Shown here piece by piece: positions 5,215 through 64,000 of a stretch of DNA of 64,000 nucleotides. The stretch comes from Callorhinchus milii (Eukaryota): the NCBI RefSeq assembly GCF_018977255.1, contig NW_024704743.1:20648001-20712000 (forward strand), in the 5' to 3' direction. Every line of letters starts with the position of its first letter. Position 1 is the stretch's first letter. Position numbers and translations under genes: made by a program. The notes under the pieces are model-generated. The model ran no database searches. It saw only the letters and a list, made by a program, of their open reading frames with translations, and was not told the origin of the DNA.

Positions 5215-5648
5215 AAAGATGGGGACAATGCTCTCACAAATTTCATGTTGAACAAGGAATTGAACTGGCTCCAAGGTGACATACTTGAAAACGGAATATC
5301 GGAATAGAGCCAGCCCTCTGGCGGTCTCAGTAGTCCAGTGCCTGAGCCAGGCGGGTCCACAGTACTCCAAGGCACTGATGATGACAGCACAGCCAGGCTC
5401 ATCAGCAGAACTTGGAAGGACAGACCAGTCACTGGGGGCAGGGAATCTTCCCCCTCAGTTCCCATTAACCTGCAAGCCAAAGCCCTGATGGGGAGGGTGT
5501 TCCTAGCTGGACAAACAACGGGAAAGCTTTCCAGGTAATGTTCTAAATGACAAGCTAAGCCGTTTTAGCCAGTTAGACTCCAGTAGAATCTCAATTCATA
5601 CACTGGGGTCCCCATGTCTTGGTTCTCGCCAACCTGCACCTAATACTA
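5215..5648 (+). repeat. unclassified interspersed repeat (family X), internally deleted copy
   Basis: Colinear with 60030-60600 (GAACTGG.TCCAAGGTGACAT, CAGGCGGGTCCACAGTA, GACCAGTCACTGGGGGCAGGGAAT, CTGGGGTCCCC..GTCTTGG). Confidence 0.8.
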
Positions 5649-6798: not shown

Positions 6799-7092
6799 GG
6801 AGTCCTGTAGCTCAGTGGTTAGAGCACTCGCTTTGCAAGTGAGAGACCTGAGTTCAATTCCAGGCAGGGCGAAACCTTGGGCAAGTTTCCTTACTCCACA
6901 CGCCTAATAATAATCCTCAAAAAAAAACAATAATTAAATTGGTCATTTTCAATCTACGACTGTTTGTGGGACATTGCTGTGCGCAATTGGCTGCCGCGTT
7001 CGCCCACAAATATAAAGTCAATTCACTTTACAGTGTGTTCTGTGAAGCGCTTTGGGACGTCCTCCCGACGTGAAAAGCGCTATATCAAATGC

Positions 7093-7127
<35 letters not shown>
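6799..7127 (+). mobile_element. full-length tRNA-derived SINE, short young variant
   Basis: Starts GGAGTCCTGTAGCTCAGTGGTTAGAGC (A box); B-box-like GAGTTCAATTCC; (TAT)n tail; TACAGC on both flanks (possible TSD). Confidence 0.95.
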
Positions 7128-8053: not shown

Positions 8054-8607
8054 AACTCGGACTGAAATGGCAACAATAAGATGGAAAAAAGTGTCCTCAG
8101 GTAAATAACAGAGGTCCCAAATGACACCTTATCTTAGCCTATGAAAAATTACAGTACCTTTTAAGAACCAAAATTGGCCTCCCAATCGGGTGCAAAACCC
8201 TCATGGTCCAGCATCTTGGGACGTCCTCCTGACGTGAAAGGCGCTACATAAATGCAATTTGTTGCTGTTCCAACTAAGACCGAATTTAAGAATTTTTTTT
8301 ACAAATCTACGAAATCTTCATTTTTTTTAATGATAGAAGGGTTTTACAGGCTAAAGCATTTGGAAATTTCAGGTCTCAGAAGCCAGTACAACCACACGGG
8401 GCGAGAAGACCAATCAAATTTTTGTAATATTTCCCGACCACACAAATATTTAAAGGGGGGTGGCCTATTTTAAAGATCATGCAAATATAAATACTCCCTC
8501 TTTAAACAGGAAATTTACTTGATACTTGGATTTAATTCAGAAAAAATGTGGGCAGGATACTGTATGGATACCCTTCAATACATAGAGGAAACTTCACATA
8601 GGGTTGT

Positions 8608-8917
8608 GGAGTCCTGTAGCGCAGTGGTTAGAGCACTCGCTTTGCAAGCGAGAGACCTGAGTTCAATTCCAGGCAGGGCGAAACCTTGGGCAAGTTTCCT
8701 TACTCCACACGTCTAATAATAATCCCTCCAAAAAACAAAACAATAATAAATTGGTCATTTTCAATCCATGACTGTTTGTGGGACATTGCTGTGTGCAATT
8801 GGCTGCCGCGTTTCGCCCACAAATATACAGTCAATTCACTTTACAGTATATTCTGTGAAGCGCTTTAGAAGACGTGAAAAGCGCTATATCAAATGCAAGG
8901 ATTATTATTATTATTAT
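8608..8917 (+). mobile_element. tRNA-derived SINE, short variant
   Basis: GGAGTCCTGTAGCGCAGTGGTTAGAGC head; family body; (ATT)n tail. Confidence 0.93.
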
Positions 8918-41412: not shown

Positions 41413-41437
41413 NNNNNNNNNNNNNNNNNNNNNNNNN
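41413..41437. other. assembly gap (25 N)
   Basis: Run of N. Confidence 1.
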
Positions 41438-50085: not shown

Positions 50086-51521
50086 CTAACTACCGTCCCC
50101 AGTCCAATCTCCCTTTCCTCTCCAAGGTCCTGGAACGAGTTGTTGCTTCTCAGCTTCGCTCCTTCCTCTCCCGCCACTCCCTTCTCGAACCCCTCCAATC
50201 GGATATCCGTGCCACCCATAGTACAGAAACAGCCCTAGTCAAAGTGACAAATGACATTCTGTCCATCTGCGTCCAGGGTTCCCTCTGCCTCCTCATCCTC
50301 CTTGACCTCTCTGCTGCCTTTGACACTGTTGACCATTCTAACCTTATCCACCAACTCTCCTCTTACCTCAACCTCCACAGCTCTGACCTCTCACACCACC
50401 TACACTTCAGCTCCACAAACGGCTTCTTCTCTAGACCCCAGAAAGTCTTGTGCGGAGTTCCTCTGATTTGGGCCCCTACTCTTCAATATCTATATGCTCC
50501 CTCTTGGTGACATCATCCTCAGAACATGGGGTCAACTTCCACATGTATGCGGATGACACACAACTGTACCTCTCTGCCTCCACCCTTGACTCCAGGACCA
50601 CTGCTGTCCTGACAGAATGTCTGTCAGACATCAAGTCGTGGATGAGAGCTAACTTTCTCCAGTTGAATGTCAACAAGACCGAGGCTCTCCTGATTGGCTC
50701 CTGTCAGCGCCTCTTCACCTCAGGCGCTGATAGCATCACCATCCATGTTTGCACACTCCACCTTGCTAAGCCAGTCTGGAACCTTGGAGTCTTGTTTGAC
50801 CCTCAATTATCCTTTCTACTCCACATCTGTGCCATGACCCGCTCTGCCTTCCCCCACCTCTGCAACATCGCCTGGCTCCTCCACTGCCTCACACTGCAGG
50901 CGGCCGAAACCCTCATACACCCTTTCATTACATCAAGGCTCGACTATGCAAACTCATTGCTTGTCGGCCTCCCCAACTCCTCCCTCCAAAGGCTGCAGAT
51001 CATCCAGAACTCTGCAGCATGCGTCCACTCCCGCACCAGGCTCCGCGACCCTATCACCCCCATCCTTGCCCAATTCCACTGGCTTCCCATCACACAGAGG
51101 ATACAGTTCAAGATCCTGGTCCTCACCTTCAAAGCCCTCCACGGTCTTGCTCCCCCCTACCTCTCCGACCTCCTAACCCCCTACCATCCTGTTCGCTCCC
51201 TCCGCTCAGCGGGCTCCAGCCTGCTTCACATCCCCGCCTCGCTCGCCCCACCATTGGTGAACGGGCCTTCCACCACTCTGCCCCCACCCTCTGGATCTCC
51301 ATCCCGCAGTCCCCCCATTCACCCTCTCCCTCACCACCTTGAAGACCCATCTCAAGACCCTCCTCTTCGACCGTGCTATCGATCTCCCTGCTTCCCCCCT
51401 GCCCTCCACCCTCTCCTACCCCGACCCCCAGCTCGGGTCCATAATTCTGTCTGTCCAGCGCCTTGAGACGTCCTCCCGATGTGAAAGGCGCTTTACAAAT
51501 GTAATTTTATTGTTGTTGTTG
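50086..51521 (+). mobile_element. L2 LINE, 5'-truncated, most complete RT remnant in the window, frameshifted
   Basis: [59 protein letters not shown]; (GTT)n tail. Confidence 0.96.
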
Positions 51522-52040: not shown

Positions 52041-52044
52041 TTGT

Positions 52045-52379
52045 GGAGTCCTGTAGCTCAGTGGTTAGAGCACTCGCTTTGCAAGTGAGAGACCTGAGTT
52101 CAATTCCAGGCAGAGGGCGAAACCTCGGGCAAGTTTCCTTACTCCACACAGAGCCTAATAATAATCCTCCAAAACCAAAAACAATAATACATTGGTCATT
52201 TTCAATCCACGACTGTTTGTGGGACATTGCTGTGCGCAATTGGCTGCCGCGTTCTCCCACAAATATACAGTCAATTCACTTTACAGTGTGTTCTGTGAAG
52301 CGCTTTGGGACGTCCTCCTGACGTGAAAAGCGCTATATCAAATGCAAGGATTATTATTATTATTATTATTATTATTATT
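52045..52379 (+). mobile_element. full-length tRNA-derived SINE, short young variant (outer end of the left inverted arm)
   Basis: Family head, body and tail. Confidence 0.93.
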
Positions 52380-52811
52380 TGGCTCCATCCAACAGTTGCC
52401 TCATATTCAATATTTTACATGGCCCCTGGGGATATCTAGAAATAGTTGGCAGAGTAAACAAATTACATCTGAAAGCCACATGCACCAATTGTTCTTATGA
52501 GTTACATTTTACTTTCTTCAGTTCAACCTGATTGTTGTTAATGTACTTTCTTCTCCATGGGGAAATCTTTCTTGAACCAAACAATCACTTGCATTAAAAC
52601 GTACAGTAAGGATAGGATTTTTTGCCAAAAGTCTTACAGATGACGTTGTAAATCTGTAGGTTATTTCTTGGTTTCACCAAACCATGATCACTAATATTAA
52701 CTCTCTTTTAAGTTCTGTAAAGGCCTTATTTTTTCCGAGTCACATGCTTAAATGCAGTCTTCGGCTCATTTTAGGTTAGATGACGTCAGATGAACTCATG
52801 TTTGCCATTGA

Positions 52812-53168
52812 TTAATAATAATAATAATCTTGCATTTGATATAGCGCCTTATTCCGACTTTGAGACATCTCAAAGAGCTTCACAGAATATATCGTAAAGT
52901 GAATTGATTGTATATTTTTGTGGGCGAAATGTGGCAGTGAATTAATCGTGGATTGAAGTGACCAATTTATTATTATTATATTTTTGAAGGAATTATTACC
53001 CCTGGAAAAGCAATCTGCCAATCGACTAAGAACCAGGTTCCTACTTACTGCTAGGTAAACAGAGGCGTGTGGAGTGAGGAAACTTGCCCAAAGTTTCAAC
53101 CTGCCGGAAAGTGAACCCAGCTCTTCACGCTTGCGAGGAGAGTGCTATGACCACTAAGCTACAGGATT
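52812..53168 (-). mobile_element. tRNA-SINE, long variant (mirror at about 62457-62815, + strand)
   Basis: Family head, long insert and tail in reverse. Confidence 0.9.
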
Positions 53169-53316
53169 CAATATCAGGACAACAACAACAATAAATTACA
53201 TTTGTCTAGTGCCTTTCACGTCCGGAGGACGTCCCAGAGGGTGTCCCAAGGTGCTTATCAATATTGGCTGAGCACCCGATCTGTATAATATGGATAGTCT
53301 CCTGAGTGGTAAGATA

Positions 53317-53526
53317 TTACTCCACACGCCTAATAATAATCCCTCCAAAACCAAAAACAATAATAAATTGGTCATTTTCAATCTACAACTGTTTGTGGGA
53401 CATTGCTGTGCGCAATTGGCTGCCGCGTTCGCCCACAAATATACAGTCAATTCACTTTACAGTGGTGTTCTGTGAAGCGCTTTGGGACGTCCTCCCGACG
53501 TGAAAAGCGCTATATCAAATGCAAGG

Positions 53527-53568
<42 letters not shown>
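53317..53568 (+). mobile_element. 5'-truncated young tRNA-SINE (mirror at about 62119-62351, - strand)
   Basis: TTACTCCACACGCCTAATAATAATCC...(ATT)n. Confidence 0.9.
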
Positions 53569-53569
<1 letters not shown>

Positions 53570-54067
53570 GCAGAGCTGAAGCATAAAACTAAAGCTCTAT
53601 TCGATGAAGTTTGAATGCACACATGACACATTTTCAGTTTAAAATTGCCAACTGTTGAGTCATTAGGATCACTGTCAGTATCACTTCCTGCTTTATGCAC
53701 GTGTAGCAAAGTGAAAGTAATGTTTGTGGCCAAAGACCTAAATGTTAGCAATTTTTTTCTTTCAGTACAGAACTGGGTCGTGCCAGCCGGTTGCAGGCAG
53801 GCACAGTTAATTCCTACCATTGCGCCTCACTGTAACGTTGGTTTGGATTTTATGGATCCCAGAGACCCCATTAATCCATGTCTCCACAGTGCTATATTTT
53901 CCATTCTTTATCCCCTTGGAATATTTAAATTTAAACCAGTGCCTTTGATTTCTGCTTTTCAGTCTTAGTCTTACATTGATATTATCCCATTATTTTAAAG
54001 ATATGGTCCATATTTTTTTAATGAGAAGAAGTTAAACTGTGTATTCTATACAAGCTTTCCTTATAAA

Positions 54068-54378
54068 GCAGGTGAAACACTGGACAAGTTTCCTTATTCC
54101 ACACGACTTTGTTTACCTAGAAGTAAGAAGGAGCCCGGTTGCTAGTCGATTGGCAAATCGCTTTTCTGGGGATAATAATCTCTTCAAAAAAAATAAAAAA
54201 ATAATAATTTGGTCACTCAATCCACGACTGTTTGTGAGATATGGCTGTGCGCTGCTGTGTTCCGCCCACAAAATATACAGTCAATTCACTTTACAGTATA
54301 TTCTGTGAAGCGCTTTGAGACATCTAGAAGACGTGATAAGGCACTATATCAAATGCAAGGATAATTATTATTATTATT
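54068..54378 (+). mobile_element. tRNA-SINE, long variant, 5'-truncated (mirror at about 61308-61618, - strand)
   Basis: GCAGGTGAAACACTGGACAAGTTTCC..TTTACCTAG..(ATT)n. Confidence 0.88.
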
Positions 54379-54929
54379 GTAAGAGGATCCAAACATGTTT
54401 ATCTGTATGAATGGACAGAAGTACCTTTCATGCTTGAAAGTACAGTAGGTTGGCTATCTGTATTTTTTTATGTTGATCATAAAGGCTCCTTTGTTTTTAA
54501 ATTTTGCAGCTGCATGTGAAGGAATCGTCCTAACTTGTAACATATAATTGACAAATTAACAAATGTGTTACATTGATTTCCAACTACTTGGCATATCTTT
54601 CATCAGTAATTTTACTGTTTAACCCATGCAACACATATCTGCAGATTGCCCTCAGTAACTTTGAACAGTCAGCAGTTATAATTGCTGTTTACCTAAAAGC
54701 GTAAAGAATCTTTAAGCGCTTTGGGATTTAACAAAAGTGCCTTAAGTACTTTCTCCTGATGTGAAAGGGACAATATAAATGTAATTTATAAATGTGTTGT
54801 ATTAAGCATCTTCAAAGAACATATTGCAATACACTCCAACATATTAATATGCTTTGTGGATAACCTTCTCCACTTGATTTTAATACTACCGCTACACAAC
54901 AACATGTTGGGGGGTTAGCCGGGTGTTTA

Positions 54930-55860
54930 ACATATGCGGAAATCCATCATCCTGCTTAAAAGTATCCAAACCAAAATGAGAATTGCACGCATCTCACCTA
55001 TTCATGGAAATTCGAGAAATGTTTATTGGAATGCGCATTTCTCTCACTGGAGGGAAACATCCTGCTTACATAATTCAGAAAAGTATCAGATGCAGGTTGG
55101 CAAGAGCCAAGACTCGGGGACCCCAGAGTGTGCGTTGTGGTACTGCTGGAGTCCAACCAGCTAAAACTGAATATGTTGGCATTGATATCACTATCTGGCA
55201 AGCTTTCCAGCTTGTCCAGCTAGGACCACCCTACCCTTTAGGGCTTTGGCTTGCAGGGTTAACAGGAGCTGAGTGGGAGAATTCCCTGCCCCCAGTGACT
55301 GGTCTGACCTTCCAGGTCCTGTCGATGAGCCAGGCTGGCTGGACTGTCATCAGTGGTCCTGTGGAATACTGTGGACCCGCCTGACTCAGGAACTGGACTA
55401 ATGAAACTGTAACAGAGGATTGGCTCAATTCTGACATTCCGTTGCCAGACATGTCACCTTGGAACCAGTTCAATTACAAGGTGACCCCACTTACCTGCCC
55501 CCCAAGGAGGATAGTCACTAGTTGGTCATTTCACAACCGAGAAGCGCATCTTTGAGCCCTCACGAGGTGGATGGTAGGTACCAGGAACTTCCCGCGAGCT
55601 TCCTAGTGCGCAACAGATCTCAGCATGAAATGTGCGAGAGCATTGCCACCATCACGTTCATTTCCATTGAGCGATGGTTCCACTAGGTGGAGTTGGGGAG
55701 CTTGAACAGCAGCTGCTTGCCTCTCGCAGACTAATCAAGGTGGATTCCAAGCGCTGGATGTTCACGAACTTGGACTCCAGGTAACGGCTTCCAGCAGTTG
55801 TCACCCCAAGCCTCAGCATTTCCTCATCAGCTAACTGACGGACATTTGCCTTCAGCATGG
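54930..55860 (-). repeat. family X, longest copy (mirror at about 59824-60755, + strand)
   Basis: Contains all blocks seen at 5215, 30055 and 49685. Confidence 0.75.
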
Positions 55861-55861
55861 T

Positions 55862-56152
55862 CCGCCCCTCTTCAATATCTGTATGCTCTCTCTTGGTGAC
55901 ATCATCCGCAGACATGGGATCAACTTCCACATATATGCAGATGGCACCCAACAGTACCTCTCTGCCTCCACCCTTAACTCCAGGACCACTGCTGCCCTGA
56001 CAGAATGTCTGTCAGACATCAAGTCCTGGGTGAGAGCTAATTTTCTTTAGTTGAATGTCTACAAGACCGAGGGCCTCCTGATTGGTTCCCATCAGCACCT
56101 CCACACCTCAGGCGCTTACAGCATCACCATCCATGGATTACACCCTCCACCT
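55862..56152 (+). mobile_element. L2 RT internal fragment (mirror at about 59535-59823, - strand)
   Basis: TTCAATATCTGTATGCTC..GACATCATCCGCAGACATGGG..TATGCAGATG (decayed YADD region). Confidence 0.88.
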
Positions 56153-56220
56153 ACACTTTCCTTTCTCCATAGATGCTGCCTGACCTGCTGAGTATTCCCA
56201 GCAACTTCTGTTTTTGTCGC
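56153..56220. mobile_element. single arm of the palindromic PLE-like element (mirror at about 59467-59533)
   Basis: CTCCATAGATGCTGCCTGACCTGCTGAGTATTCCCAGC matches 15310-15340. Confidence 0.75.
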
Positions 56221-56834
56221 CGCTTTGGAATTTGCCTGACATTGGCAAAGCTCAGGTGAGACTAGATACTGATTCTGATAATGTAATAACAAATATGATA
56301 ATTTGATTGGGCACTGTGCTGAATTGCCCGTGGTGCTTTAGATGAGTCATTAAACCAAAGGATTTACCTGGTTAAAAGTATCAGGCTGCGACTGTTACGG
56401 GGGATGTGATGCCTCTGCTTTAATCTGCGTCAATTTGTCATTGATGATGTATACCGGTCCACCAATTGCCCATTTGGGTACCTGTTAAAGATCCATAAAA
56501 CTATTCGAAAAGAGAAGGGAATTTCTGCTCGTGACCTGGCCATTCAACTCTGTTCGTGGTATCATTTGTGGTGCGCACACCGCATTCACCATGAAATATC
56601 AGTCACCAGTACTGACAGGCAATCACCTGTGAAGCACTTCAAGACATTTCAATAATAATAATAATCCTTGCATTTGATATTACGCCTTATCACATCGTTG
56701 AGATGTCTCAAAGCGCTTCACAGGATATATTATAAAGTGATTGACTGTGTATTTCGTGGGCACCCAGCTACATCCCACAAACGGCCATGGAGTGAGTGAC
56801 TAATTTCCAAGCTTGTCTAATCATGTTAATAATA

Positions 56835-57160
56835 GTAACAATAATCATTGCATTTGATACAGCACCTTTTACATCAGGAGGACATACCAAAGCACTTTGC
56901 AAGAGTTACTGTATTCGTAGGCAAATGCAGCAGCTCAATTGCAACCAGCAATGTCCCACAAACAGCTGTGAATGATTAATTTGATTTGAGGGATAAAATT
57001 TGGCCAGGACACCAGTGCCATGGAATTTTTAAAGTCCACGTGAACAGGCAGACAGGACCTAGGTTTAACGACTCATCTGAAGGACAGTACCTCTGGCAAA
57101 GCAACACTCCCCCAGTACTACATTGAACTGTCAGCCTAGACTAAGTGAGCTCAAGTCTAA
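56835..57160 (-). mobile_element. Deu-domain SINE in the spacer
   Basis: GTGCCATGG..TTTAAAGTCCAC.TGAACAGGCAGACAGGACC..GGTTTAACG.CTCATC is the Deu core in reverse. Confidence 0.8.
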
Positions 57161-57174
57161 CTATTGCTCATAGC

Positions 57175-58043
57175 CTGGGCCAATAGAAAAGTGCGGAAAC
57201 ATTTGCCAAAAATTCTGGGGAAATTTTGCAATGCCATGGGAAATTGCAGGGAAATTTGACAAATTTTGTGGAAAATTGTGGGGAGTTGATTGGTGATATT
57301 GAGCTACATTTTACTGCTGATCTACGTTTTTTACTTTATTGATAAAAGCTAAACATGAGGAAATAACACATATTAGATTGTTGCAATTTTTAAAACTTAA
57401 TTTCTTTAACAAAAACTGGATGGTCCATTTGGGGGTGGGGGAGTGGGGGTCACCAGCGCAGACCCAAAGGGCCTGGAGATCTGCTAACTGCAGGGTTACA
57501 GGAGCTCATCACCCTGCCTCTCATAGCCGGGCATCGCACACAGAGACAGAGACCCAGAGAGACACACAGACACAGAGAGAGACACACGCACTCACAGATT
57601 CAGAGAGACACACGGCCTCAGAAAGAGACACACACACTCATAGACACAAAGAGACATACACACACAGACAGAGAAGAGAGACACAAATACACATTCACAC
57701 AGAGACACTCATAAACACACACACATATAGAAGAGACACACACAGAAACACACATATATACACAGAGGAGGGAGACATACTCACACAATCACTCACAAAC
57801 ACATAGAGAGAGAGACAGACAATCTCAACAGTGGGGCCTCCGAGTGAAGTGAAGCCTATTTCCCACTTACGCCATATCGCACATGCATGTCTAGAGCTGC
57901 CCCGTCCACAGTGACATCAAATAAACAGCGTGAGAGACTCGGGCACCAGAAACTTCTTTTTTTTTTTAGCTGTTTATAGTGGAGGACGCTGTTTATCGCG
58001 GATTCTGCGGGAAAATTGTGGCAGCACTTTTCTATTGGCCCAG
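57175..58043. mobile_element. non-autonomous DNA transposon, probably hAT, 869 bp
   Basis: Perfect 20-bp TIRs CTGGGCCAATAGAAAAGTGC (57175-57194) / GCACTTTTCTATTGGCCCAG (58024-58043); perfect 8-bp TSD CTCATAGC (57167-57174 and 58044-58051). Confidence 0.9.
57536..57820. repeat. compound (CA)/(GA) low-complexity tract inside the DNA transposon
   Basis: Read directly; explains the T/H/R-rich ORF 57339-57806. Confidence 0.9.
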
Positions 58044-58089
58044 CTCATAGCTCATTCCTCAAACATGGCGGATCATCCTGGTTGCTCTC

Positions 58090-58880
58090 CTCTGCACTAG
58101 TTTAGGGGCTGCGCAGCCCCCTTATGTTGTGACCGGAACTGATTGTAGGACTCGAGATATGGCCTGGCCAGAGCACTGATTGAGCATGACTTGTGATTGA
58201 TTCAGTAATATAGCACAACATCCTGTTTGCCATGCTTATTGCTGCATCACACTGTTTTGACATGGTGAGTGATACGTCAACTAATAACCTTCCTTTGCAA
58301 GTTCTATCCCATCCATGGAGGATGTGCATTGCCCTACTTCCTAGAATCAAAGCAATTTGTTGTGTAGGCCATTCAGCCTATTGAGTCTGCACCGGCTTTC
58401 AGAACAACCTGTACTTTCATTTTTACTGACCTGCTCTATCCCCATAGTCCTTCAAACCTCTAACTTACTGCCTTCTCTGATTCCTCAGTTCCCTTGGTGC
58501 CATCTGCAAATTTAACTATCTTACACTAGGGTTTGGACTGCAGGTCACTAATGCGTAGAGAACTGGAGAGTGGTCACATTACTCAATACACCTGAGACAA
58601 CTTTCTTAATACTCTCTATTTTGACCTAGCTCCTTAAAACTACACTGTGAGTCCTTCCCTTCAGCCAATTTTAAATCCAAGTCCATGACCTTGATACCTA
58701 GTGACATCAGTTTGTGAAGGAGTCTTTCATGCAGTACTCTGTCAAATGCCTTTTGGAAGTCTGTGCATAGCACATTTATATGGCCTCCCACAGTCAATTT
58801 GGAATATCACCTCCTCCAAAAAAATTCAATGAGATTGGTCAGACGAGATCTACCAGATTTGTGCTGGCCATCATTTATTT
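58090..58880 (-). mobile_element. decayed CR1 RT fragments
   Basis: 'DFQKAFDRVLHERLLHKL' (ORF 58606-58797), 'KFADGT' near 58500, 'SLTMSKQCDAAISMANRML', and 'LTNLIEFF' near 58830. Confidence 0.85.
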
Positions 58881-61800
58881 AAATTAGTCACTCACTCCAT
58901 GGCCGTTTGTGGGATGTAGCTGGGTGCCCACGAAATACACAGTCAATCACTTTATATTATATCCTGTGAAGCGCTTTGAGACATCTCAACGATGTGATAA
59001 GGCGTAAAATCAAATGCAAGGATTATTATTATTATTGAAATGTCTTGAAGTGCTTCACAGGTGATTGCCTGTCAGTACTGGTGACTGATATTTCATGGTG
59101 AATGCGGTGTGCGCACCACAAATGATACCACGAACAGAGTTGAATGGCCAGGTCACGAGCAGAAATTCCCTTCTCTTTTCGAATAGTTTTATGGATCTTT
59201 AACAGGTACCCAAATGGGCAATTGGTGGACCGGTATACATCATCAATGACAAATTGACGCAGATTAAAGCAGAGGCATCACATCCCCCGTAACAGTCGCA
59301 GCCTGATACTTTTAACCAGGTAAATCCTTTGGTTTAATGACTCATCTAAAGCACCACGGGCAATTCAGCACAGTGCCCAATCAAATTATCATATTTGTTA
59401 TTACATTATCAGAATCAGTATCTAGTCTCACCTGAGCTTTGCCAATGTCAGGCAAATTCCAAAGCGGCGACAAAAACAGAAGTTGCTGGGAATACTCAGC
59501 AGGTCAGGCAGCATCTATGGAGAAAGGAAAGTGTAGGTGGAGGTGTAATCCATGGATGGTGATGCTGTAAGCGCCTGAGGTGTGGAGGTGCTGATGGGAA
59601 CCAATCAGGAGGCCCTCGGTCTTGTAGACATTCAACTAAAGAAAATTAGCTCTCACCCAGGACTTGATGTCTGACAGACATTCTGTCAGGGCAGCAGTGG
59701 TCCTGGAGATAAGGGTGGAGGCAGAGAGGTACTGTTGGGTGCCATCTGCATATATGTGGAAGTTGATCCCATGTCTGCGGATGATGTCACCAAGAGAGAG
59801 CATATAGATATTGAAGAGGGGCGGACCATGCTGAAGGCAAATGTCCGTCAGTTAGCTGATGAGGAAATGCTGAGGCTTGGGGTGACAACTGCTGGAAGCC
59901 GTTACCTGGAGTCCAAGTTCGTGAACATCCAGCGCTTGGAATCCACCTTGATTAGTCTGCGGAGAGCCAAGCAGCTGCTGTTCAAGCTCCCCAACTCCAC
60001 CTAGTGGAACCATCGCTCAATGGAAATGAACGTGATGGTGGCAATGCTCTCGCACATTTCATGCTGAGATCTGTTGCGCACTAGGAAGCTCGCGGGAAGT
60101 TCCTGGTACCTACCATCCACCTCGTGAGGGCTCAAAGATGCGCTTCTCGGTTGTGAAATGACCAACTAGTGACTATCCTCCTTGGGGGGCAGGTAAGTGG
60201 GGTCACCTTGTAATTGAACTGGTTCCAAGGTGACATGTTGGCAACGGAATGTCAGAATTGAGCCAATCCTCTGTTACAGTTTCATTAGTCCAGTTCCTGA
60301 GTCAGGCGGGTCCACAGTATTCCACAGGACCACTGATGACAGTCCAGCCAGCCTGGCTCATCGACAGGACCTGGAAGGTCAGACCAGTCACTGGGGGCAG
60401 GGAATTCTCCCACTCAGCTCCTGTTAACCCTGCAAGCCAAAGCCCTAAAGGGTAGGGTGGTCCTAGCTGGACAAGCAGGAAAGCTTGCCAGATAGTGATA
60501 TCAATGCCAACATATTCAGTTTTAGCTGGTTGGACTCCAGCAGTACCCCAACGCACACTCTGGGGTCCCCGAGTCTTGGCTCTTGCCAACCTGCATCTGA
60601 TACTTTTCTGAATTATGTAAGCAGGATGTTTCCCTCCAGTGAGAGAAATGCGCATTCCAATAAACATTTCTCGAATTTCCATGAATAGGTGAGATGCGTG
60701 CAATTCTCATTTTGGTTTGGATACTTTTAAGCAGGATGATGGATTTCCGCATATGTTAAACACCCGGCTAACCCCCCAACATGTTGTTGTGTAGCGGTAG
60801 TATTAAAATCAAGTGGAGAAGGTTATCCACAAAGCATATTAATATGTTGGAGTGTATTGCAATATGTTCTTTGAAGATGCTTAATACAACACATTTATAA
60901 ATTACATTTATATTGTCCCTTTCACATCAGGAGAAAGTACTTAAGGCACTTTTGTTAAATCCCAAAGCGCTTAAAGATTCTTTACGCTTTTAGGTAAACA
61001 GCAATTATAACTGCTGACTGTTCAAAGTTACTGAGGGCAATCTGCAGATATGTGTTGCATGGGTTAAACAGTAAAATTACTGATGAAAGATATGCCAAGT
61101 AGTTGGAAATCAATGTAACACATTTGTTAATTTGTCAATTATATGTTACAAGTTAGGACGATTCCTTCACATGCAGCTGCAAAATTTAAAAACAAAGGAG
61201 CCTTTATGATCAACATAAAAAAATACAGATAGCCAACCTACTGTACTTTCAAGCATGAAAGGTACTTCTGTCCATTCATACAGATAAACATGTTTGGATC
61301 CTCTTACAATAATAATAATAATTATCCTTGCATTTGATATAGTGCCTTATCACGTCTTCTAGATGTCTCAAAGCGCTTCACAGAATATACTGTAAAGTGA
61401 ATTGACTGTATATTTTGTGGGCGGAACACAGCAGCGCACAGCCATATCTCACAAACAGTCGTGGATTGAGTGACCAAATTATTATTTTTTTATTTTTTTT
61501 GAAGAGATTATTATCCCCAGAAAAGCGATTTGCCAATCGACTAGCAACCGGGCTCCTTCTTACTTCTAGGTAAACAAAGTCGTGTGGAATAAGGAAACTT
61601 GTCCAGTGTTTCACCTGCTTTATAAGGAAAGCTTGTATAGAATACACAGTTTAACTTCTTCTCATTAAAAAAATATGGACCATATCTTTAAAATAATGGG
61701 ATAATATCAATGTAAGACTAAGACTGAAAAGCAGAAATCAAAGGCACTGGTTTAAATTTAAATATTCCAAGGGGATAAAGAATGGAAAATATAGCACTGT

Positions 61801-63521
61801 GGAGACATGGATTAATGGGGTCTCTGGGATCCATAAAATCCAAACCAACGTTACAGTGAGGCGCAATGGTAGGAATTAACTGTGCCTGCCTGCAACCGGC
61901 TGGCACGACCCAGTTCTGTACTGAAGAAAAAAATTGCTAACATTTAGGTCTTTGGCCACAAACATTACTTTCACTTTGCTACACGTGCATAAAGCAGGAA
62001 GTGATACTGACAGTGATCCTAATGACTCAACAGTTGGCAATTTTAAACTGAAAATGTGTCATGTGTGCATTCAAACTTCATCGAATAGAGCTTTAGTTTT
62101 ATGCTTCAGCTCTGCATATTAATAATAATAATAATAATAATCCTTGCATTTGATATAGCGCTTTTCACGTCGGGAGGACGTCCCAAAGCGCTTCACAGAA
62201 CACACTGTAAAGTGAATTGACTGTATATTTGTGGGCGAACGCGGCAGCCAATTGCGCACAGCAATGTCCCACAAACAGTCGTAGATTGAAAATGACCAAT
62301 TTAATTATTGTTTTTTTTTTTGGAGGGATTATTATTAGGCGTGTGGAGTAAGCTCAGCCAATATTGATAAGCACCTTGGGACACCCTCTGGGACGTCCTC
62401 CGGACGTGAAAGGCACTAGACAAATGTAATTTATTGTTGTTGTTGTCCTGATATTGAATCCTGTAGCTTAGTGGTCATAGCACTCTCCTCGCAAGCGTGA
62501 AGAGCTGGGTTCACTTTCCGGCAGGTTGAAACTTTGGGCAAGTTTCCTCACTCCACACGCCTCTGTTTACCTAGCAGTAAGTAGGAACCTGGTTCTTAGT
62601 CGATTGGCAGATTGCTTTTCCAGGGGTAATAATTCCTTCAAAAATATAATAATAATAAATTGGTCACTTCAATCCACGATTAATTCACTGCCACATTTCG
62701 CCCACAAAAATATACAATCAATTCACTTTACGATATATTCTGTGAAGCTCTTTGAGATGTCTCAAAGTCGGAATAAGGCGCTATATCAAATGCAAGATTA
62801 TTATTATTATTAATCAATGGCAAACATGAGTTCATCTGACGTCATCTAACCTAAAATGAGCCGAAGACTGCATTTAAGCATGTGACTCGGAAAAAATAAG
62901 GCCTTTACAGAACTTAAAAGAGAGTTAATATTAGTGATCATGGTTTGGTGAAACCAAGAAATAACCTACAGATTTACAACGTCATCTGTAAGACTTTTGG
63001 CAAAAAATCCTATCCTTACTGTACGTTTTAATGCAAGTGATTGTTTGGTTCAAGAAAGATTTCCCCATGGAGAAGAAAGTACATTAACAACAATCAGGTT
63101 GAACTGAAGAAAGTAAAATGTAACTCATAAGAACAATTGGTGCATGTGGCTTTCAGATGTAATTTGTTTACTCTGCCAACTATTTCTAGATATCCCCAGG
63201 GGCCATGTAAAATATTGAATATGAGGCAACTGTTGGATGGAGCCAAATAATAATAATAATAATAATAATAATAATCCTTGCATTTGATATAGCGCTTTTC
63301 ACGTCAGGAGGACGTCCCAAAGCGCTTCACAGAACACACTGTAAAGTGAATTGACTGTATATTTGTGGGCGAACGCGGCAGCCAATTGCGCACAGCAATG
63401 TCCCACAAACAGTCGTAGATTGAAAATGACCAATTTAATTATTGTTTTTTTTTTGGAGGGATTATTATTAGGCGTGTGGAGTAAGGAAACTTGCCCAAGG
63501 TTTCGCCCTGCCTGGAATTGA
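58881..63521 (-). repeat. large inverted duplication, right arm (about 4.64 kb), cut off by an N gap
   Basis: Begins AAATTAGTCACTCACTCCATGGCCG, the reverse complement of 56782-56806; ends inside a SINE at the gap. Confidence 0.97.
63246..63521 (-). mobile_element. young tRNA-SINE (mirror of 52045-52379)
   Basis: Family body and tail; same tail-to-flank junction TTATTTGGCTCCATCC. Confidence 0.92.
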
Positions 63522-63546
63522 NNNNNNNNNNNNNNNNNNNNNNNNN
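63522..63546. other. assembly gap (25 N)
   Basis: Run of N. Confidence 1.
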
Positions 63547-63915
63547 CTTCAAAGCCCTCCACGGTCTTGCTCCCCCCTACCTCTGCAACCTCCTAACTCC
63601 CTACTATCCTGTTCACTCCCTCCGCTCAGTGGGCTCCGGCCTGCTTCACATCCCCTGCCTCGCTTGCCCCACTCTGCCCCCCACCCTCTGGAGCTCCATC
63701 TCGCAGCTTCTCCAACTCACCCCTCCTTTGCCACCTTCAAGACCCATCTCAAGACCTTCCTCTTCGACCGTGCTTTTGATCTCCCTGCTTCCCCCCTGCC
63801 CTCCACCCTCCCCACCCCGACCTCCAGCTCGGATCCGTAACTTTGTCTGTCCAGCACCTTGGGACGTCCTCCCGACTTGAAAGGCACTTTACAAATGTAA
63901 TTTTGTTGTTGTTGT
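63547..63915 (+). mobile_element. L2 3' end
   Basis: 'FKALHGLAPPYLCNLLTPY'; GGACGTCCTCCCGACTTGAAAGGC..(GTT)n. Confidence 0.92.
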
Positions 63916-64000
63916 TAGCCTCAAGACCACTGTCTTAACATTTAAGATGATACCAAATTTTGGAAAACTCTTAAATTTAGTCTTAATTAGAAAACCCGTT

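Follow-up and report, generated by a model that had tools for sequence, protein, structure and literature searches.

An 11.4-kb spaced palindrome beside an assembly gap in Callorhinchus milii is very probably a false inverted duplication

Introduction

False duplications in genome assemblies have been recognized by half read depth, by gaps and by palindromic chimeric reads of 7–17 kb (10.1101/2021.04.09.438957). Foldback artefact reads, in which by definition the turn takes place within 200 bp (PMC12338684), also enter assemblies as inverted duplications (PMC12338684; 10.1101/173872). In this work, a stretch of 64,000 nucleotides from the elephant shark Callorhinchus milii was analyzed (NCBI RefSeq assembly GCF_018977255.1, contig NW_024704743.1, positions 20,648,001 to 20,712,000 of the forward strand; hereafter the window, with positions counted from its first letter). 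This window contains a spaced palindrome composed of two near-identical inverted arms, arm A (52100–56806) and arm B (58881–63521), placed around a spacer (56807–58880). The palindrome was correctly observed in the assembled sequence, but the genome itself most likely lacks it.

When compared with the false duplications described previously (10.1101/2021.04.09.438957), this locus resembles them in that both copies lie on the same scaffold, the total depth corresponds to one copy and a gap is found nearby. It also resembles the palindromic chimeric-read type of the same account in its seamless centre and in its size, which falls within 7–17 kb. Nevertheless, it departs from the duplications described there in having a 2-kb non-palindromic spacer and a gap located at its outer end. 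As in foldback reads, a sequence is followed by its own reverse complement from the same locus (PMC12338684; 10.1101/173872), but here the turn skips 2074 bp and lies outside the strict definition (PMC12338684).

Gap-filling programs have been described to lengthen contig ends at gaps that remain open and to add duplicates that inflate assemblies, and the minimum gap size of one of them, PBJelly, is 25 N (PMC3504050, PMC9635638, PMC7757076). The locus is similar to the overfilled or extended gaps of PBJelly, since extra sequence runs into a gap that is still open and both gaps of the window measure exactly 25 N. However, an inverted copy does not appear in the passages of those accounts that describe such gaps, and the use of PBJelly for this assembly is a supposition.

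A real counterpart is provided by the germ-line fold-back inverted duplications, in which an arm, a single-copy spacer of a few kb and an inverted arm follow one another as they do here (PMC3907307). The 21 human fold-back junctions sequenced in that study comprised 13 with a microhomology of 2–8 bp, three with repeats of about 300 bp and five with insertions. Unlike the junctions reported there, neither microhomology nor a repeat pair nor an insertion was seen at the junction of this locus. Furthermore, the arms measure kilobases instead of megabases, there is no terminal deletion and the duplication was not seen in other samples.

Results

When the window was aligned to itself by BLAST, positions 52100–56806 matched positions 63521–58881 on the minus strand over 4711 columns with an identity of 98.1% (E = 0.0). 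This was the sole pair of at least 400 nt and at least 90% identity in the 64-kb window, far beyond what chance would give. Arm A measures 4707 bp, arm B 4641 bp and the spacer 2074 bp; the centre of the palindrome contains no Ns, and the spacer itself is non-palindromic with the exception of one 20-bp inverted pair. The alignment bore out the description given in the first-pass annotation, made from the sequence letters, of inverted arms of about 4.7 kb around a 2074-bp spacer. Its sharp inner breakpoints were found with the same junction strings (TAATTT followed by CC at 56806, and TT followed by AAATTA at 58881). The outer end had been placed inside a young short interspersed element (SINE) beside a gap, and in effect arm B terminates at a 25-N assembly gap (63522–63546), at the mirror point of position 52100 within such an element.

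Depth over the arms and the state of the inner junctions had also been proposed there as checks. For this purpose, contigs of the runs X10–X13, corresponding to four samples of one study, were aligned to positions 52400–58950. These four were chosen from 19 runs because each of them contains more than half of the query words; the shares found in X1–X9 were 0.05–0.09. A total of 32 records were listed out of 318,567 pieces, 18 for the arm and 14 for the spacer, all of them contig-level data. Both checks concern samples other than the assembled animal. If both arms were real, contigs would collapse them and the depth of the arm would be twice that of the spacer. The length-weighted arm/spacer depth ratios in the listed single-locus contigs were 0.96, 0.96, 1.23, and 1.22 in X10–X13, respectively, with a mean of 1.09 (95% confidence interval 0.86–1.36; p = 0.003 against 2), the depths being taken from single listed contigs because summed depth is no copy number. 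Hence, the arm was present as a single copy in the four samples. The spacer (+ strand) is also a single-copy sequence. Arm A (+ strand), which is non-coding and rich in repeats, is likely the true single copy.

The junction between the spacer and arm B (58880–58881) was reached by a contig of X13 (record 32; 244 letters, depth 7.2). This contig matched positions 58702–58880 without differences or gaps, and its last 65 letters (180–244) were unlike 58881–58950, although 70 bases of arm B were included in the reference. Therefore, the spacer continues into other sequence in X13 and the spacer/arm B junction is absent there, which points to 58880–58881 as a likely false junction. The fact that the contig is unbroken at 58880 implies, from the way in which contigs are built, that no competing branch into the arm existed. 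Since the match stops where arm B starts, the microhomology is 0 bp as judged by the end of the match, although a diverged repeat homology may be present within the 65 unlike letters. Additional rows for joints (15 listed of 3463) and loose ends (24 listed of 6774) corresponded mostly to SINE contigs, and were uninformative about both inner junctions and about the 43-bp indel described below.

The global alignment of both arms yielded 28 differences, 15 substitutions and 13 indel events. The indels include a 43-bp stretch (53274–53316) missing from arm B, in which a tail repeat is also 17 bp shorter. Substitutions and indels had been described as only scattered in the first-pass annotation; they are indeed present, but their distribution is far from even. 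Seventeen of them were concentrated in two young-SINE segments (575 bp, with the 43-bp indel counted there), ten were found in 55138–56806 (1669 bp) and a single one in the 2463 bp formed by 52380–53273 and 53569–55137. At the 20 differing columns of the young SINEs, the letter of arm B was always present in another copy of the window, and the letter of arm A was seen in none of the seven other copies at 13 of these columns. Moreover, the two SINEs of arm B were 99.0% alike and those of arm A 93.6%. A real duplication followed by independent mutation would be expected to leave private changes on both arms, unlike this one-sided pattern, which suggests that letters of the high-copy family overwrote those of arm B when reads were corrected or polished; gene conversion could also produce it. 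Separately, the 43-bp stretch present only in arm A could be either an allele or a correction error.

Outside the young SINEs, one transition and six transversions were found between the arms, versus 15 transitions and two transversions between the runs and the window (Fisher p = 0.0013; the latter count comprises 17 of 18 rows, the multi-contig row at 58080 having been dropped). The substitutions between arms outside these elements were error-like, being transversion-rich and unlike natural alleles. Within 52400–56806, three of the 18 events fell under the cover of single-locus contigs, which extends over 2450 of 4407 bp (p = 0.0008), and three of 11 when the young SINE was left out (p = 0.03); the differences thus avoid the covered parts. 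Alleles that differ between the copies would be expected of a heterotype false duplication. Among these three, position 55720 was a clear case of a segregating allele between the arms, since X13 carries the letter of arm B and X12 that of arm A. The 1-bp deletion of arm B mirrored at 53760 was present in none of the four covering contigs, and at 55724 two covering records showed one unplaced gap each. A distinct haplotype of X13, with four substitutions plus gaps in 442 bp and matching neither arm, was also observed at 52586–52772.

The spacer lacks one C at 58490 and another at 58631, both present in the four runs, and the window lacks a C at 57973 that was listed for two of the four. These three missing Cs are likely residual assembly errors, and the deletion of Cs in C runs is a long-read error type (PMC8848313). 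Those at 58490 and 58631 are as expected for weakly supported long-read sequence near the end of a contig.

Regarding the remaining features, the window has a G+C content of 41.5% and is dense in retroelements. It includes seven tRNA-Ala-like heads, remnants of reverse transcriptases from long interspersed elements (LINEs) and a SINE tail that resembles a LINE tail; around half of the length of either arm is similar to repeats found elsewhere in the window. A scan against Rfam detected tRNA-like SINE heads only (10 matches). The CmiSINEs of the elephant shark have been described as bearing tRNA-Ala heads and an L2-like tail (PMC5499810), and the SINEs of the window, compared by description only, fit this account in their heads and their LINE-like tail. 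A very young subfamily of tRNA-Ala-headed SINEs, with copies 91–98% alike and an (ATT)n tail, was found at 1189–1489, 6799–7126, 8604–8917, 52044–52379, and 53317–53556. The contig depth over one of these copies exceeded two million, and therefore the family must be very large.

Several of these repeats lie in the arms or at their ends. The young SINE at 52044–52379 (+ strand) contains the outer end of arm A and is partly mirrored at 63246–63521, as deduced from the self-alignment and the comparison of copies. The arm alignment placed at 53274–53568 (+ strand) the 43-bp stretch without counterpart in arm B, followed by a 5′-truncated young SINE whose mirror is 62116–62352. The inner end of the arm corresponds to an older, truncated SINE remnant (56650–56806, − strand), recognized by its repeat matches and by a peak of contig depth. 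Additionally, an interspersed repeat without a name was observed at 54913–55475 and 5258–5647; both copies are 79% alike over about 390 bp, and it holds a 134-codon open frame without a Pfam match.

Inspection of the spacer revealed an element (57175–58043) whose 20-bp terminal inverted repeat is perfect. The element is bordered on each side by the same 8 bp in direct orientation (57167–57174 and 58044–58051) and contains a 290-bp AG/AC low-complexity tract; we take it to be a likely non-autonomous hAT-type transposon. A broken LINE reverse-transcriptase fragment (58636–58878, − strand; RVT_1, E = 0.01, below the curated cut-off), presumably CR1-like from its motifs, ends at the junction. LINE copies are commonly 5′-truncated, and this end is therefore uninformative between a real and an artefactual junction. 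Neither the arms nor the spacer yielded a gene: the two frames of at least 120 aa that were tested had no Pfam match, short exons not having been searched for, and the open frames of these regions showed no family match except for retroelement pieces.

To the right of the gap, the 3′ end of a LINE (63547–63916, + strand) was detected in the self-alignment. A continuation of the mirror past the gap was ruled out, since the resemblance of this LINE to the copy at 51127–51520 amounts to only 84% and both run in the same orientation. The window has one more gap, likewise of exactly 25 N, at 41413–41437 between LINE-rich flanks. The 3 kb to each side of it contain no long, near-identical duplicate. 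Hence, gaps of 25 N are not always accompanied by a duplicate.

Discussion

Arm B (58881–63521, − strand) very probably arose during sequencing or assembly as a false, inverted duplicate of arm A, because the depth of the arm is that of a single copy in four samples, the X13 contig leaves at 58880 and arm B stops at the gap. The chromosome likely carries arm A once, followed by the spacer and then by sequence that is missing from the window. The first-pass annotation had offered both a very recent real duplication and an artefact. The latter is supported by the depth and the junction, whereas the former, together with the double-stranded RNA and the flipping of the spacer attached to it, found no support here. 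Its remark that the adjacent gap favours an artefact agrees with the published marks of false duplications, of which the one-copy depth and an unsupported join (the latter from record 32 of X13 only) were found at this locus and a gap between the copies was not. The 2-kb spacer had been held to argue against a plain missed-adapter read, and this stands in view of the 200-bp limit of the foldback definition (PMC12338684).

As for the origin of arm B, the balance leans toward an extension by a chimeric read. At first, the contig would have stopped close to the spacer. It would then have been extended into the gap, which stayed open afterwards, by a chimeric long read that consisted of arm A, the spacer and the reverse of arm A and that doubled back on the opposite strand at 56806. 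The 11.4-kb span would thus be the length of one read. Read correction or polishing may then have equalised the unique parts of the arms, put family-type letters in the SINEs of arm B and left errors in the high-copy repeats. This route is preferred, as it explains why the join is blunt and the span read-like, why Cs are missing from the last kb of the spacer, why the SINEs are of the family type and why one allele comes from the other haplotype. As a guess, a turn that skips 2 kb might arise in library preparation if a long single-stranded overhang were ligated back to the opposite strand. A mis-oriented contig of the second haplotype, joined without Ns, is a possible but distinctly less likely route to the same artefact.

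Several observations weigh against the artefactual nature of arm B. The 2-kb skip at the turn is not explained by the definition of foldback reads (within 200 bp), which the 2074-bp spacer exceeds, and such reads seldom occurred in the PacBio sets that were examined (PMC12338684). Real fold-back duplications, in turn, typically have spacers of a few kb (PMC3907307). The gap is located at the outer end of arm B and not between the copies, as is usual in false duplications. Position 58880 is reached by a single record among the 32 listed (of 318,567), the information on the junction thus coming from X13 alone, and a heterozygous junction would escape detection in X13 around 9–13% of the time at this depth. 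None of the 32 listed records bridges 56806/56807, and the order of arm A and spacer is therefore assumed; a row at 56762, with a contig end 41 letters away, can be explained whether the first junction is bridged or broken. The contig depth is noisy (4.5–14.5) and the four runs come from one study. The reading of 25 N as the mark of a gap overfilled by PBJelly is an assumption of ours, and a printed statement that overfilled gaps are written as 25 N was looked for in the literature and not found.

Furthermore, the checks covered only samples other than the assembled animal, which leaves room for a private rearrangement. This would be a real, very recent inverted duplication, rare or absent in the species, generated by fold-back or template switch at a break at 58880, and the differences between the arms would be polishing errors in a repeat indistinguishable to the reads. 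The succession of an arm, a single-copy spacer of a few kb and an inverted arm is indeed the layout of real fold-backs, with spacers of 766–70,466 bp (PMC3907307), and in their unique parts the two arms hardly differ (one event in 2463 bp). However, such a duplication is improbable: the junction lacks microhomology, it is absent from X13, the depth is single in the four runs, and the arms differ at 55720 by a segregating allele, which one intrastrand event cannot make. In addition, human fold-backs bring terminal deletions or translocations (PMC3907307), whereas here the scaffold continues beyond a small gap. The assembled animal would have to carry a private or rare 11-kb spaced palindrome, formed by a blunt fold-back without microhomology and by an interstitial rescue without terminal loss, and we give this little credence. 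Far less probable still is a palindrome present in the whole species and homogenised by gene conversion, as on sex chromosomes, with a spacer that flips or a transcript that forms double-stranded RNA. High identity and a spaced layout would suit it, but the arm has single depth in all four runs, the second junction is missing in X13 and the open frames of the arms and spacer match no family apart from retroelement pieces.

If arm B is a false copy of arm A, the finding has curation value only: about 4.6 kb of scaffold should be dropped, and the sequence that follows 58880 is missing. If the duplication were real, it would offer a rare view of a newly formed palindrome of kilobase scale before its spread or collapse, with no gene found inside. 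Finally, the SINE copies located beside gaps in this assembly may bear family-type letters, and the estimates of their age may consequently be biased.

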